Shown here: piece after piece, positions 33,379 through 37,568 of the stretch | Layout of the letters: each line of letters opens with the position of its first letter | Numbering within the stretch: position 1 is the stretch's first letter | Made by a program: the position numbers and the translations under genes | IMG/VR virus record: IMGVR_UViG_3300046817_000498 | Length of the DNA: 64,000 bases | Source of the DNA: a virus | Direction: 5' to 3' (one strand) | Notes under the pieces: model-generated | Seen by the model: only the letters and a program-made list of their open reading frames with translations | Databases searched by the model: none | What the model was told of the DNA's origin: nothing

Positions 33379-34127
33379 CGAGCAAGACCGACGTAGTCCC
33401 GAAGGGGCAAGCCTCCACCGCCGTGATCGCCACGGCGGATCCGTTCCTCGCGATGATCGAGAAGGTCGCCACGACGCCGAACATCAACGTCGACACCCTC
33501 GACCGACTCCTCGCGATGCAGGAGCGCGTGATGCTCTCCAACGCCGAGGAGGAGTTCAACGAGAAGATGACCGCGTGCCAGATGGAGATGAAGTCCATCG
33601 TCGCCGACGCGGAGAACCCGCAGACCCGCAGCAAGTACGCGACCTACCAGAAGCTCGACCGCGCGCTGCGGCCGCTCTACACGAAGCACGGGTTCGCGAT
33701 CAGCTTCAACACCGCGCCGATCGACGGCAAGGAGGCGGTCCGAGTGCTGGCCTACGTCTCCCGCGGGCGCTTCACGCGGCCCTACCAGGTGGACGTGCCG
33801 GCCGACGGCAAGGGCGCGAAGGGCGGAGACGTAATGACGAAGACGCACGCGGTCGGAGCCGCGATGTCCTACGGCGCCCGCTACCTCCTGAAGTTCATAT
33901 TCAACGTGGCGGTCGGCGAGGACGACACCGACGGGAACACTCCGAAGGACAAGCCTACCCCGGACGAGAAGGGGCGCAAGGTGCTCGAGGCATGTGGCTC
34001 CATGGCCTCGCTCGCCGAGGCGTGGAACAAGTTGAGCAAGGAACAGCGCCGGACGCTGGTCGAGGTCCGGGACGAGTGCAAAGCGAAGATCGCGGCCGCC
34101 GACAAGGCCGCAGCGGGGGCGAAGTGA
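33375..34127 (+). CDS. ERF-family single-strand annealing protein
   Basis: 250 aa from ATG 33375. NPQTRSKYATYQKLDRALRPLYTKHGFAISF and downstream blocks fit the essential recombination function family. Confidence 0.7.
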   Translation: MTSKTDVVPKGQASTAVIATADPFLAMIEKVATTPNINVDTLDRLLAMQERVMLSNAEEEFNEKMTACQMEMKSIVADAENPQTRSKYATYQKLDRALRPLYTKHGFAISFNTAPIDGKEAVRVLAYVSRGRFTRPYQVDVPADGKGAKGGDVMTKTHAVGAAMSYGARYLLKFIFNVAVGEDDTDGNTPKDKPTPDEKGRKVLEACGSMASLAEAWNKLSKEQRRTLVEVRDECKAKIAAADKAAAGAK

Positions 34128-34867
34128 GCACCGCCACCGAGATCGTCGCCTACAAGGCCACCGAGGCGGTCCTCGCGGATCTAGCCTCGAAGTACAAGGG
34201 GGTCGTCTTCAACGTCAAGGACTCGAAGGGCATGGAGGACGCGAAGGCGGCATACAAGGACATCGCCGCTCACAATAGAACGCTCGAAGCCGCGCGGGTC
34301 GCCGAGAAGGCCGCGAGCCTCGCCTACGGGCGGTTCGTGGATTCAGAGGCCCAGCGTATCGCCGAGCAGTTGGATGCGCTGCGGCTCCCGATCAAGGAGC
34401 AGATAGAGGCCGAGACAAAACGTGTCGAGCGCGAGCGCGAGGCCGCGATCCAAGCCGAGATGGCACGCCAAGAGGCCGAGGCCAGGGCGAGGAAGGAAGC
34501 CGAGGAACGGCGCATGGCCGAGGAACGCGCCGAGCTCGACCGCCAGCGGGCCAAGTTCGAGGCCGACCAGCGCGAAGCGCGCGAGCGGATCGCGGCCGAG
34601 GAGGAGCGCGTCCGGCGGGAGCGGGAGGTGGTTGAGCGGGCCCGGCGCGAGCAAGAGGAACGTGAACGTGCAGAGCGCATGGCGAAGGAACAGGCCGAGC
34701 GGACCGCGCGGCTCGCCGAAGAAGCGCGGCAACGCGCAGCGCAGAAGGCCGAGAACGACAAGGCCGACGCTCGCGGGATGCTTGCGAGCTTCGTCGAGCG
34801 GTACGGGAAGATCAAGGAGTTCGCCGACGTCGTGAAGGCGATCAAGCGGTACCAGGGGGGCAAATGA
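34124..34867 (+). CDS. coiled-coil Glu/Arg/Ala-rich protein
   Basis: 247 aa from GTG 34124. The long ER-rich helix lies between globular ends. Sits between the annealing protein and the exonuclease. Confidence 0.5.
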   Translation: MSTATEIVAYKATEAVLADLASKYKGVVFNVKDSKGMEDAKAAYKDIAAHNRTLEAARVAEKAASLAYGRFVDSEAQRIAEQLDALRLPIKEQIEAETKRVEREREAAIQAEMARQEAEARARKEAEERRMAEERAELDRQRAKFEADQREARERIAAEEERVRREREVVERARREQEERERAERMAKEQAERTARLAEEARQRAAQKAENDKADARGMLASFVERYGKIKEFADVVKAIKRYQGGK

Positions 34868-35493
34868 TCGTCCATCCCGCAGCGCAAGGAACAGAGGAGT
34901 GGGCCGCAGCTCGGGCGGGGCATTGCACCTCGTCCGAGTTCGCGGCGGTGCTCGCCAAGGGCGAAGGAAAGACCCGACGGGCTTACATGCGCCGGGTGCT
35001 CGCCGAGCGCATGATCGGGAAGCCGATCGACGGCTACCGCAACGCGCACATGGACCGCGGCAAGGAGCAGGAGCCGTGGGCGCGCGAGGCCTACGAGGTG
35101 GAGACCGGCAACCTGGTCGAGCTCGTCGGCTTCGTGAAGCACGACGCGATCGAGTGGTGCGGGTGCTCACCCGACGGTCTGGTCGGCAACGATGGCGGGG
35201 TTGAGGCGAAGTGCGTGATCCCGACCGTCCAGCTGGAGACCATCATGGGCGGCAAGTACCCGACCGAGCACGTCGCGCAGGTTCAGGGCAACCTGTGGAT
35301 CACCGAGCGGAAGCATTGGGACTTCGTCTCGTTCTCGCCGGATATGCCGGAGCGGCTGCGCCTGTACGTCTACAGGGTCCAGCGCGACGAGGCCTACATC
35401 GCGGCCCTCGACCTCGAGGTCCGGCGCTTCCTCGCCGAGGCGAACACGATCTACCGCAGCCTGATGGGGATGCCCCTGTTGGCGGCGGCATGA
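34864..35493 (+). CDS. YqaJ-like viral recombinase exonuclease
   Basis: 209 aa. QGTEEWAAARAGHCTSSEF ... GCSPDGLV ... EAKC fits the PD-(D/E)XK motif set of the YqaJ/lambda Exo family. Confidence 0.8.
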   Translation: MIVHPAAQGTEEWAAARAGHCTSSEFAAVLAKGEGKTRRAYMRRVLAERMIGKPIDGYRNAHMDRGKEQEPWAREAYEVETGNLVELVGFVKHDAIEWCGCSPDGLVGNDGGVEAKCVIPTVQLETIMGGKYPTEHVAQVQGNLWITERKHWDFVSFSPDMPERLRLYVYRVQRDEAYIAALDLEVRRFLAEANTIYRSLMGMPLLAAA

Positions 35494-36858
35494 ATGTCGG
35501 CCTACTACAACGAGAACGACCCGATCGCCGCGGAGTGGCTGCGGCGCCTGATCGCGGCCGGGCTGATCGCGCCGGGCTTCGTCGATGAACGCTCGATCCT
35601 CGAAGTCCGCCCGGAGGACCTCCGGGGCTTCCGTCAATGCCACTTCTTCGCCGGTATCGGCGTCTGGTCACACGCCCTCCGACTCGCTGGCTGGGCCGAC
35701 GACCGACCTATTTGGACAGGCTCTTGCCCCTGCCAGCCCTTCAGTTCCGCCGGAAAGCGCGCGGGGCATGAGGACGAGCGCCACCTATGGCCGGCTTGGT
35801 TCGGGCTCATCGGCGAGTCGCACCCTGTCGCTGTCGTTGGCGAGCAAGTTGCAGACGGTGACGGCAAGGCTTGGCTCGACCTTGTGGCGTCTGACCTGGA
35901 AGGCCGAGGCTACGCCGTCGGGGCGGTATCTACCTTGGCTGCTGGCTTCGGATCGCCCAATCTCCGACAGCGGCTCTACTTCGTGGCCCACTCCGACGTC
36001 GTCGCGGACGGGCGACTACACCAGGGACGGCCGAACGGGCCTCGAGCGTCCGAGCACCCAAGGGTTGGTGGGCTGGCCGACTCCAGCGGCGACCGAGCTC
36101 GGGAATTCACTAGAATCTTACAGGGCGATGAAGGCGAACATGGCGAGCGGCCCGCGCGAGACGATCACGCATCTGTCGCAGGCCGTACAGTTGGCGAGCT
36201 GGCCGACCCCTCGGACACCGACCGGAGGCCCGGAGAGCGCCGAGCGAAAGAAGGAACTCGGCCGGATGGACAGCGGCGGCGGGGACCTTCAGGCGGTGGC
36301 GCTACTCGCGAGCTGGTCGACGCCGAGCTCGCGCGACTGGAAGGACACCGAAGGGATGGCGACCGAGGGGACGAACCCGGACGGGACAAAGCGGGAGCGG
36401 CTGGACCAGTTGCCGCGGCAAGCCGGGCTGGCGATGTCGCCTTGGAGAACACCGACGGCGGAGGACGGCGTTCGATCAGTCCACCCGAACCCGGACGCGA
36501 AAGCGGGGCAGCACAGTCTCACGACGGAGTCGAGCCTCGCAGCATGGCCGACGCCCAACGCGGGGTCCGAGAACAGCACGAGGGGACACGGGCAGGACCC
36601 GGCGCTCCGGCGAGCGGCTGGGCGACAGGTGGACCTGAAGGACGCGGTGACCCTGGTCCCGTCAACGGCTTCTGGTCCGATGCCGAATGGCTCCCCTGCA
36701 CCGACGGGAAAGCGCGGCCAATTGAACCCGGCACATTCCCGCTGGCTCATGGGGCTCCCGCCCGAGTGGGACGCCTGCGCGCCTACGGAAACGCGCTCAA
36801 TGCTTATCAAGCGGCGCACTTCCTCGCCGCCTACCGGGAGCTGATCGATGGCGACTAG
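35494..36858 (+). CDS. DNA (cytosine-5)-methyltransferase ORF (central third doubtful)
   Basis: Motif I FFAGIGVW, motif [10 protein letters not shown], motif VI GEQV, motif [17 protein letters not shown], and a C-terminal [13 protein letters not shown]. The middle is Arg/Gly/Asp/Glu-rich with rare codons. Confidence 0.6.
35768..36844 (+). CDS. alternative-frame ORF with W-P-T-P repeats overlapping the methyltransferase ORF
   Basis: The +1 frame is open from 35585. [15 protein letters not shown] is followed by six WxTP repeats and ends [17 protein letters not shown]. Third-position G/C bias is higher than in the annotated frame by hand count. Confidence 0.4.
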
Positions 36859-37246
36859 GCGGACCTTCGACGTCGAGACCGACGGGCAACGGGCGTACCT
36901 GCTGAAGTTCCTCGAGCGGCAAGCGCCGCCCTTCCGCGCGGAGCTCGGGCCGATCGCGAAGCAACGCACCGCGACCCAGAACGCGCGCCTGTGGCTCCTC
37001 CATACCATGGCCGGGCAGCATCTCGGCTACGAGGCCGAGGAGATGCACGAGTTCGCCCTGTGCCACCACTTCGGCTTCGTCGAGAAGGAGGTGGTCGACC
37101 CCATGACGGGCGAGCTCGTGCAGAAGCGCATCCCGAACAAACGCTCGAGCACGCGGAGCCGCGAGGAGTTCCGCGCGTTCATGGACGCGACCGAGACCTG
37201 GTACGGGACCGAGTTCGGGTGCTGGCTCAATGCCGATCAAGCCTGA
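36848..37246 (+). CDS. NinB/Orf-like recombination protein
   Basis: 132 aa. RTATQNARLWLL and SSTRSREEFRAFMDATETW parallel the RS.DQN..LW and STS....EF blocks of lambda NinB. Confidence 0.5.
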   Translation: MATRRTFDVETDGQRAYLLKFLERQAPPFRAELGPIAKQRTATQNARLWLLHTMAGQHLGYEAEEMHEFALCHHFGFVEKEVVDPMTGELVQKRIPNKRSSTRSREEFRAFMDATETWYGTEFGCWLNADQA

Positions 37247-37568
37247 ATCCGCCAAGCGGTATCCGAAACACTGGAAATTCATGGTCGCTGCGGTGCGCGC
37301 TCGTGCTGGAAATCGCTGTGAAGGCTCCCCCGCCTATCCTGACTGCCGAGCGCACAACGGCAAGCCCCATCCCGTAACGGGTAGCAAGGTCGTGTTGACC
37401 ACGGCGCATTTGGAGCATGACGATCTGGAGACGCAGGACTTGGACAGGCTTCGCTACTGGTGCCAGCGATGCCATCTGACCTACGACGCGAAGCACCATG
37501 CGAAGAACGCTCGCGCAACCAGACGAGCACGTAAAGCGATGGCCGATCTACTGGACCGCGCCCCCTGA
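37230..37568 (+). CDS. HNH endonuclease
   Basis: 112 aa. GNRCEG ... TTAHLEHD ... CQRCHLTYD. Confidence 0.7.
   Translation: MPIKPESAKRYPKHWKFMVAAVRARAGNRCEGSPAYPDCRAHNGKPHPVTGSKVVLTTAHLEHDDLETQDLDRLRYWCQRCHLTYDAKHHAKNARATRRARKAMADLLDRAP

Follow-up and report, generated by a model that had tools for sequence, protein, structure and literature searches.

Overlapping reading frames at a phage locus probably encode the two subunits of a DNA (cytosine-5) methyltransferase

Does the C5-methyltransferase locus of IMG/VR virus record IMGVR_UViG_3300046817_000498 encode one protein or two? In the stretch of 64,000 nucleotides that was analysed (hereafter the window), the annotated ORF, here called alpha (35494..36858, frame 1, 454 aa; plus strand, as are all features below), is accompanied by a second ORF in the +1 frame, here called beta (35585..36844, frame 2), which encodes 419 aa from ATG 35585 or 358 aa from ATG 35768. 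Beta lies fully inside alpha on the same strand, a nesting of the M.EcoHK31I type that is also present in about 40 homologs. The initial annotation had pointed out this double signal and offered a nested gene, a gene with two compensating frameshifts, or indels and decay as possible explanations, choosing none. Its statements on the sequence all held when rechecked: both frames are open and the internal ATG at 35768 is present in the ORF list; N-terminal C5 motifs and a motif X-like end are found in frame 1; the centre of about 215 codons described as Arg/Gly/Asp/Glu-rich corresponds to frame 1 residues 171-385, with 65% R/G/D/E/A; frame 2 has six W.TP repeats (first TGG at 35984, last at 36545); and the motif IX-like element (frame 2, 36719-36772) and motif X (frame 1, 36763-36834) sit in different frames. 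Third-position G+C, which had been counted by hand, is highest in frame 2 across approximately 35764-36660 (0.67-0.93 versus 0.53-0.80 in frame 1), and the two frames tie in two overlap windows (35899-35988 and 35944-36033). Taken with the comparisons below, these features make it quite probable that two overlapping genes on the same strand specify the subunits of one DNA (cytosine-5) methyltransferase. Among the explanations first proposed, the nested gene is therefore the one that we retain, and compensating frameshifts, indels and decay are not; the proposed confinement of the nested gene to the variable region does not hold either, because the first codon of beta falls at alpha residue 31 or 92, and motifs IV/V-VIII are within the overlap.

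Alpha belongs to the C5 methylases (PF00145), with a match above the gathering score (E = 5e-12, 46.3 bits versus a cut-off of 22) that covers residues 74-168 only and leaves the TRD, IX and X, in the profile's C-terminal half, unmatched; it also matches phrog_363 (E = 1e-75). Its catalytic domain (residues 1-170, 35494..36003) contains FFAGIGVW (35644-35667), SCPCQPFS with the PCQ cysteine (35722-35745), the ENV-like GEQV (35839-35850) and a further motif of 10 residues (35959-35988). Motifs I-VIII and X are all present, in the unusual order II-III-I-IV-V-VI-VII-VIII, motifs II (YYNENDP..AAEWL) and III (GFVDERSI) being assigned by eye. The AF2 model of this domain alternates strands and helices, with pLDDT of 80-96 in most 10-residue blocks and dips to 58 and 63. 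In Foldseek searches, the alpha model matched M.HhaI, M.HaeIII and other C5 methyltransferases with probability 1.00, over approximately 170-190 aligned columns that cover only the large domain of M.HhaI and M.HaeIII; the alignment to M.HhaI spans its residues 2-32 and 71-171 and includes motif I and motifs IV-VIII.

The remainder of alpha is of a different nature. A spacer (residues 171-385, 36004..36648) is stop-free, with an unconstrained amino-acid sequence that carries 25 changes with respect to a 94%-identical relative, and is modelled at pLDDT 29-54, with a disordered region at residues 174-381. It is followed by a conserved segment (residues 391-408, 36664..36717) where frame 1 constraint is dominant, with invariant W394, C402 and R408 and a hairpin at 398-410 (pLDDT 62-72), and by motif X (YGNA) and the C-terminal helix (36763..36858), where G432 is invariant and N433 and A434 nearly so. 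The helix covers residues 437-453, and blocks over residues 431-454 have pLDDT of 71, 94 and 81.

Beta has at least 4973 database homologs, none of which has a Pfam domain, and 10,830 representatives in a library clustered at 50% identity. Hosts or source bins of the family include Proteobacteria, Cyanobacteria and Bacteroidota, and phages N15 and epsilon15 are among its carriers; a scan of genome contigs gave three distant loci only. Sequence searches of Pfam, NCBIfam and PDB and a profile search of PDB with beta found nothing, and Foldseek returned only noise (best E = 0.45), the model being too poor. Indeed, the AF2 model has a mean pLDDT of 60 with three short confident islands, which counts against a two-subunit reading, as does a leader of about 60 residues (alpha residues 31-92) that is open yet unconstrained in sequence. 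The two ATGs are the sole in-frame beta start codons between 35573 and 35812 and correspond to positions where starts recur in homologs: of 34 loci, 32 have a beta-frame start codon within alpha residues 30-41 and 29 have one within residues 84-99. Either ATG, or both, may be used; no Shine-Dalgarno sequence was recognisable upstream of them, nor upstream of the alpha start, and a scan of 34700-37400 for promoters and terminators found none.

Downstream of the leader, a helix and beta-hairpin (beta residues 75-124, 35807..35956) are dual-coded with alpha motifs V-VIII and modelled at pLDDT >90 (helix 76-96, strands 101-109 and 115-123); a 15-residue frame 2 motif lies at 35882-35926. Next is an array of six WxTP modules of approximately 30-45 residues each (35984..36718, W codons at 35984, 36074, 36200, 36314, 36443 and 36545), under purifying selection in frame 2 only. 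Relative to the gene of the window, a near-identical one (L049) has the module at 36443 swapped and one extra module, and in L048 the only differences are substitutions within the module at 36443. Among 118 proteins we counted 110 architectures built from at least 24 recurrent module families, these being clusters at 80% coverage and 50% identity (single linkage lumped nearly all modules). The array is followed by the motif IX-like segment (beta residues 379-396, 36719..36772), where frame 2 constraint is dominant and L380, P382, W387, P392 and W395 are invariant in 121 sequences.

A clue to the nature of beta came from single-chain C5 methyltransferases of actinophages of the LLPTP type (Mycobacterium phage IrishSherpFalk gp71, L051). 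Motifs IV-VIII are homologous between the two types, the alpha profile aligning to gp71 residues 67-158 (hhalign probability 98.8%), and the beta profile aligns to gp71 residues 266-358, that is, to the last LLPTP module and LNPAFPEWMMGWPTGW (probability 94%; E = 1e-7 for the beta C-terminus against the LNPAFPEWMMGWPTGW region). Both types have homologous (L/W)PTP repeats followed by LNP..(E/R)W(L/M)MG.P..W, and in gp71 LNPAFPEWMMGWPTGW sits about 20 residues ahead of GNGVVP. They differ in that most modules, motif IX and motif X of the gp71 type are in frame with motifs I-VIII, and in that its motif order is the canonical I-II-III-IV. On these alignments, the centre of beta is not a de novo overprint, being homologous to the target-recognition and motif IX part of single-chain relatives; it is the annotated frame that is a derived, meaningless reading in the centre. 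Similarly, indirect evidence suggests that beta carries motif IX: the label relies on homology and position in gp71 and on pattern resemblance, and Pfam and PDB searches with the segment returned no match.

The caveat of the initial annotation that openness alone proves nothing is sound, and shuffle tests and substitution patterns take the question further. In about 40 homologous loci with GC of 0.46-0.68, frame 2 stops are confined to the first ~38 and last ~15 codons, whereas the third frame contains 5-31 stops per locus. When codons of frame 1 were shuffled among synonyms in 29 homologs, 13.4 + 37.8 frame 2 stops were predicted from motif I to VIII and none was observed; in the control, the first ~36 codons under the same shuffle, 38 were observed versus 34.5 expected. 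Conversely, shuffling frame 2 codons in the centre of 22 loci predicted 46.9 frame 1 stops, with none observed and 89 in the third frame. Three independent near-identical metagenome contigs also have both frames open end to end. Both frames are thus held open by selection.

A homolog alignment with a check of synonymous sites, as had been suggested, found selection in both frames, alternating along the locus. Between the window and its relative L048, 21 of 28 substitutions in the centre are synonymous in beta and only 2 of 28 in alpha; those 21 fall at frame 2 third positions (binomial p = 8e-6), and the two sequences differ at 4 amino acids of beta and at 25 of alpha. Selection in the centre therefore acts in frame 2 only. 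Elsewhere the diversity at 4-fold sites of alpha is informative. It amounts to 0.64-0.68 at residues 1-103, an ordinary single-frame constraint, falls to 0.40 under the beta helix-hairpin (versus 0.68, p = 3e-4), where third positions of alpha are fixed (P111 always ends in T, CCT in the window, and V115 and V119 likewise, GTT), is 0.69 at residues 391-408, where third positions are free, falls to 0.17 under beta motif IX (p = 6e-6), and is back up to 0.57 at alpha motif X and the C-terminal helix. Since synonymous sites of alpha are frozen only under the beta helix-hairpin and motif IX, constraint is interleaved between the frames, in the order alpha 1-168, beta from about alpha residue 104, alpha 391-408, beta 379-396 and alpha 424-454. 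The comparative case for the overlap is as strong as sequence alone can make it.

The alternative that survives best, though we regard it as improbable, is that alpha alone is the methyltransferase and the nested ORF has a separate function, for instance as an anti-restriction or DNA-binding factor. The mostly low pLDDT of beta and its failure to match Pfam, NCBIfam or PDB would fit such a function, and so would the conserved C-terminal elements that alpha retains for itself. However, alpha has neither a folded region between motifs VIII and X nor a motif IX, exactly the parts of a single-chain methyltransferase to which beta is related; no beta-like ORF without an overlying catalytic frame was seen among the loci examined; and the alpha chain of M.EcoHK31I is inactive without beta (PMC2836561).

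Less plausible still is a single polypeptide whose synthesis would involve programmed ribosomal frameshifting twice, by +1 once motif VIII has been read and by -1 ahead of motif X, restoring the series I-VIII, TRD, IX, X. It is true that gp71 has motifs I-VIII, LLPTP modules, IX and X in one frame, and that motif VIII ends where the first WPTP starts (35984-35988). Yet under this mechanism each frame need be open only in its own segment, and both are open nearly end to end in the ~40 loci. Moreover, each frame stays open and under constraint across the putative junctions: frame 2 is constrained, and confidently folded, for about 60 codons upstream of motif VIII, and frame 1 is constrained at residues 391-408, a segment that this mechanism would assign to frame 2. 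Splicing would also place motif X about 8 residues past motif IX, against about 27 in gp71, and no slippery heptamer was noticed on reading 35980-35995 and 36740-36775 by eye. Two fusions were considered and discarded, one of alpha residues 1-~95 to beta by an early +1 shift, which would lose motifs VI, VIII and X, and one of beta to alpha by a -1 shift at 36770, which gives a wrong spacing from motif IX to X.

Given the 68% G+C, the long shadow ORFs common around the locus and the splitting of an E. coli homolog into two partial pseudogenes by PGAP, one might suspect an artefact, whether a high-G+C shadow ORF, a gene in decay or a pair of assembly indels. This can be dismissed almost entirely: the locus is built alike on contigs assembled from other metagenome samples, where the N- and C-terminal parts of the gene are free of indels, the two-frame structure persists at GC 0.46-0.53, and no artefact would be expected to produce the shuffle results, the frozen synonymous sites or the excess of changes synonymous in frame 2. 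Because both frames are open in ~40 homologs and three contigs, and both are selected beyond their own segments, we consider indels, decay and a simple double frameshift to be excluded.

In the two-subunit enzyme that we favour, alpha would supply the AdoMet-binding and catalytic large domain (motifs I-VIII, with the PCQ cysteine) and the motif X helix, joined by the spacer of about 215 residues, which would need only to be free of stops because the same DNA encodes beta. Beta, translated from ATG 35585 and/or 35768 to 36844, would supply the parts that alpha lacks: its N-terminal helix and beta-hairpin may serve as a docking element, the six WxTP modules as target-recognition units, and its C-terminal segment would contribute the motif IX helix. 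The two chains would then combine, as those of M.EcoHK31I do, into a single methylating enzyme whose substrate would be phage or host DNA.

M.EcoHK31I, from E. coli HK31 (Lee, Kam & Shaw 1995), is a heterodimeric C5 methyltransferase in which motifs I-VIII and X belong to alpha and motif IX to beta, both chains being required (PMC2836561, PMC3404938). The N-terminal part of its beta is needed for association, although the very first residues are not, and translation can begin at more than one Met codon (PMC2836561, PMC3404938); going by the published description, these traits have their parallels here in a leader without sequence constraint, two possible start codons and a helix-hairpin under constraint. 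It counts against our reading that the predicted TRD of M.EcoHK31I was placed in alpha (PMC2836561, PMC3404938), whereas alpha here has at that position a disordered spacer and no folded region for a TRD. M.EcoHK31I is also part of a restriction-modification pair, whereas the present gene lies among phage recombination genes (ERF, YqaJ), and no nuclease was seen next to it. Beta here is about twice as long as its counterpart, with 358-419 aa and six recombining modules; that of M.EcoHK31I is reported to have 176 aa.

The two-frame arrangement has been proven once before, in M.EcoHK31I, and is here apparently spread over thousands of phage genes; with respect to that enzyme, the novelty lies in a beta subunit built of modules and in how large the family is, with more than 10,000 cluster representatives. 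What was an oddity becomes a large family that includes the textbook phages N15 and epsilon15. No paper on this family came up in a literature search for phage methyltransferases encoded in overlapping or alternative frames, the M.EcoHK31I papers being the only relevant ones. To our knowledge, a fully nested +1 ORF of 358-419 codons with both frames under selection would rank among the longest same-strand overlaps of phages and bacteria. Annotation pipelines get such loci wrong, by calling one frame only, by labelling the beta frame as the methyltransferase or by reporting two pseudogenes, and methylome-to-gene assignments and surveys of defence and anti-defence systems will miss the putative specificity subunit.

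Another natural two-polypeptide C5 methyltransferase is M.AquI of Agmenellum quadruplicatum (Karreman & de Waard 1990, cited in PMC3404938). It is split within the variable region into two chains, as here, but at the present locus motif X remains with alpha and beta is fully nested. The ORFs of M.AquI are said to overlap at their ends only. The Bacillus phages SPR, phi3T and rho11s, studied by Trautner and colleagues, reportedly encode multispecific C5 methyltransferases as single polypeptides in one frame, with tandem exchangeable target-recognising domains of ~40-50 residues between motifs VIII and IX. Going by that description, the WxTP array, with its modules shuffled among near-identical phages, looks analogous to these domains.

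A bolder proposal, which we put forward tentatively as somewhat less probable than its opposite, is that beta serves as a plug-and-play subunit for specificity. Every WxTP module would then recognise a target by itself, recombination of modules among phages would alter or broaden the range of sequences methylated by alpha, and the nesting of the two genes would keep catalysis and recognition together whenever they are transferred. If the modules do set specificity, the family would offer ready-made natural parts for building split C5 methyltransferases that can be targeted, a use to which M.EcoHK31I has already been put. Were the proposal correct, the dual-frame layout of actinophages would make dual coding an old and general trait of the superfamily, not a one-off of M.EcoHK31I. 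Actinophage genes of the LLPTP type do have a +1 ORF of their own, shorter and containing one to three LLPTP modules, which beta matches weakly by hhalign (probabilities of 51% and 1.5%), a similarity partly forced by the shared motif VIII DNA.

The annotated frame of the methyltransferase locus (frame 1, alpha; 35494..36858, + strand, 454 aa) encloses a second ORF in the +1-shifted frame (frame 2, beta; 35585..36844, + strand, 419 aa, with a second in-frame ATG at 35768), confirming the two long overlapping same-strand ORFs of the initial annotation. The motifs quoted there were all found in place, including the six W.TP codons of the frame 2 repeat modules (starts 35984, 36074, 36200, 36314, 36443 and 36545, + strand), as was the higher third-position G+C of the shifted frame; over roughly 35764-36660, G+C is greatest at the third positions of frame 2, apart from ties in two overlap windows. 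R, G, D, E and A make up 65% of frame 1 residues 171-385. The PF00145 match of frame 1 is limited to residues 74-168, and phrog_363 is matched end to end with a big central insertion. Frame 2 matched two other PHROGs, both likewise labelled 'DNA methyltransferase', but no family in Pfam or NCBIfam. The alpha ATG directly abuts the stop codon of the preceding gene (TGA ATG), and at its other end alpha shares 11 nt with the gene that follows (36848..37246).

The alpha profile aligned to residues 67-158 (motifs IV-VIII) of gp71 of mycobacteriophage IrishSherpFalk (probability 98.8%), and the beta profile to residues 266-358 (probability 94%, E 1e-7), corresponding to the last LLPTP module and LNPAFPEWMMGWPTGW, just upstream of GNGVVPQQA. 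These alignments equate beta with the variable region and motif IX of an ordinary C5 methyltransferase, and alpha with all its other parts. In the heterodimeric M.EcoHK31I, motifs I-VIII and X lie in alpha and motif IX in a nested beta, and both are required (PMC2836561, PMC3404938). As far as sequence can tell, the window locus agrees with this type in all architectural criteria examined. The first ~40 residues of M.EcoHK31I beta are dispensable, with Met17 or Met26 usable as start (PMC2836561), and the open, unconstrained leader and two starts of the window beta resemble this N-terminus. In contrast to M.EcoHK31I, the window beta is long and modular. The gene also has phage recombination genes as its neighbours: YqaJ directly precedes it and, in near-identical contigs, ERF is found further upstream. 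Moreover, the predicted TRD has been placed in alpha for M.EcoHK31I in the literature, whereas the window alpha has no folded region for one. We would class the locus as a new form of the M.EcoHK31I-type nested heterodimeric C5 methyltransferase, one that is modular and very widespread; our literature search found no description of this phage family as dual-coding. The nested second gene proposed initially stands as a second gene in the other frame, with its extent and evolutionary direction corrected. We consider it likely that alpha and beta are two subunits of one C5 methyltransferase, and most of the remaining doubt concerns a beta that would work on its own, without alpha.

The two-frame layout is conserved across the family. 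Six annotated phages were compared (hosts Erythrobacter, Pseudomonas, Klebsiella, Salmonella, Cylindrospermopsis and Edwardsiella): the +1 frame is open over nearly its whole length in all six, and the annotated frame is open in five, the exception being Pseudomonas phage PMG1. Across 41 IMG/VR loci, frame 2 stops are confined to the two ends of the frame 1 ORF (first ~38 and last ~15 codons), and the third frame has 5-23 stops. The layout persists at low G+C, namely 0.48 in locus L032, 0.52 in phage N15, 0.53 in a Cyanobacteria MAG and 0.57 in a Bacteroidota MAG. When synonymous codons of frame 1 were shuffled in 29 loci, 13.4 frame 2 stops were expected from motif I to just past motif IV and 37.8 over the remainder up to motif VIII, and none was observed in either segment; the test is unbiased, since the first ~36 codons, used as control, gave 38 observed against 34.5 expected. 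In the reverse test, shuffling frame 2 codons in 22 loci, 46.9 frame 1 stops were expected centrally and none observed; 89 occur there in the third frame.

In PMG1 (NC_016765.1, L002 1440-1620), stops break the alpha frame in the first ~45 codons, and the YYNEFDP...VDERSI part lies in another frame than HFFAGIG onward, reflecting either a sequencing indel or real alpha loss. In L009 and L022 the alpha frame extends 150-200 codons past the beta ORF end, and L009 and L038 have a stop in the centre of the beta frame; these three IMG/VR loci may be fusions or variant architectures.

The window and the near-identical contig L048 differ at 28 positions of the gene, every one within gene positions 913-1126. 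Twenty-one hit third codon positions of frame 2 (binomial p = 8e-6). Synonymous differences number 21 for frame 2 and 2 for frame 1, which leaves 4 amino-acid changes in beta against 25 in alpha. Pairwise diversity at four-fold third positions was computed on the frame 1 codon alignment of 34 loci, with p against control. It was 0.68 in alpha 1-38, ahead of the frame 2 ORF (no p given), 0.64 in 39-103, where frame 2 is an open leader (not significant), and 0.40 in 104-168, where alpha motifs V-VIII overlie the beta helix-hairpin (p = 3e-4). Towards the end it was 0.69 in 388-408 (alpha W.D.EW..C.DGK.R; not significant), 0.17 in 409-427 (beta motif IX-like segment; p = 6e-6) and 0.57 in 428-452 (alpha motif X helix; not significant). 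The third position is always T at alpha P111 (CCT in the window) and at V115 and V119 (GTT), which is unexpected because the gene's third-position G+C is high; T is what frame 2 requires there for the leucines of SLxxSLxxRLQ. Together with the diversity pattern, these frozen codons indicate that constraint is interleaved between the frames: frame 1 is constrained over residues 1-168 (104-168 shared with frame 2), then 391-408 (W.D.EW..C.DGK.R), then the motif X segment and final helix, and frame 2 across the centre and at the motif IX-like segment.

A gene needing two compensating frameshifts, also proposed initially, predicts neither this interleaved constraint nor end-to-end openness, and was rejected. 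Uncorrected indels or a decaying gene were likewise rejected. Three contigs from other metagenome samples (80-94% protein identity to the window) share its structure, which excludes assembly indels.

All 28 window-L048 differences inside the gene lie within ~210 nt (36406-36619) around one module, and the 3 kb upstream hold 44 differences from this 39.8-kb metagenome contig, which suggests that a diverged allele of the module was exchanged by patch-wise recombination.

In the AF2 model of alpha (121 sequences), strands and helices alternate over residues 1-170, where confidence is mostly high (block pLDDT 80-96, falling to 58 and 63 in places). Residues 174-381 have pLDDT 29-54, residues 398-410 form a hairpin, and residues 437-453 form a C-terminal helix (block pLDDT 71, 94 and 81 across 431-454). 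Foldseek retrieved M.HhaI, M.HaeIII, DNMT2, DNMT1 and others with probability 1.00, over ~170-190 columns covering the large domain only. The alpha motif order is permuted (35494-35750, residues 1-85) in the window and all homologs: YYNExDxxAAxWL (motif II-like) and GxVDERSI (motif III-like) precede FFAGIGxW (motif I), itself only ~25 residues ahead of PCQPFS (motif IV). M.HhaI 2-32 aligns to alpha 36-66 and 71-171 to alpha 70-166, and the AF2 strand order agrees with the permutation. Unlike alpha, gp71 has the canonical order.

The AF2 model of beta (mean pLDDT 60) has three confident islands, namely helix 76-96 with hairpin 101-123 (>90), 261-282 (~89) and 380-400 (~78), after ~75 disordered residues. 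In-frame starts between 35573 and 35812 number just two, ATG 35585 at alpha residue 31 and ATG 35768 at residue 92, and no Shine-Dalgarno match was found at either or at the alpha start. In 32 of 34 loci, a start codon occurs after the last upstream stop of frame 2 and by residue 48; loci with this stop at residue 38 have an ATG shortly behind it, at residue 41. A start at residues 84-99 is present in 29 of the 34 (ATG in 19) and absent in five, where the upstream start is thus obligatory, and frame 2 stops near residue 63 mean that N15 and L027 must use the downstream one. The ~60-residue leader is kept open, its sequence unconstrained.

Splitting 118 beta homologs at W.TP gave at least 24 recurrent module families of 26-48 residues each, except the largest, which includes C-terminal tails, plus 110 rarer types and 110 distinct architectures; the window order is [rare]-I-B-A-T-A. 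In the near-identical contig L049, one module is swapped for another kind and one added, with a net length change of 12 nt, both frames preserved and the remaining gene nearly identical, which together with the module census shows recent recombination of modules. Multispecific methyltransferases are known from Bacillus phages; by this analogy, and from their position between motifs VIII and IX, the modules are predicted target-recognition units.

Among actinophage methyltransferase loci (L051/L059-L089), frames were translated for 20 (e.g. L066 300-1700, L077 300-1170), and all but two or three carry a +1 ORF; exceptions have a PCQDLS motif IV (L063, L071, L073). This ORF covers the motif VI-VIII region and beyond (in the PCQPFS group, everything from motif IV onward) and encodes a conserved unit and one to three LLPTP modules; L077-79 have it too, at GC 0.46 and with 31 stops in the third frame. 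For the mycobacteriophage loci whose full length was read, it ends exactly at the onset of the frame 0 LLPTP modules, and frame 0 is R/G/D-rich filler along it. Dual coding may therefore predate the alpha/beta type and take more varied forms.

Homologs of beta number at least 4973 in a 90%-identity database; at 50% identity there are 10,830 representatives, 6884 of them with E <= 1e-10. Alpha has at least 8000 matches. By tblastn, 219 phage records match beta, and a relative occurs in 68 of 5426 complete E. coli genomes. Annotation is inconsistent among records: phage K1H lists both ORFs, as 'C-specific methylase' and 'Mte8-like', PMG1 has 'DNA methyltransferase' on the beta frame, Cr-LKS3 has a feature at the beta ORF position (matched by position), and R6L the C-terminal fragment alone. 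PGAP split the E. coli cS100a homolog (NZ_CM176582.1, L055 592-1761) into two partial pseudogenes ('missing C-terminus', 'missing N-terminus'), presumably because nothing resembles the alpha spacer at protein level, and left the nested beta ORF unannotated. Long overlapping 'shadow' ORFs of 100-430 aa are also numerous on both strands at 33575-35643 of the window, surrounding the YqaJ-like gene (34864..35493) and the coiled-coil gene ahead of it; unlike the methyltransferase pair, these look like ordinary high-G+C artefacts.
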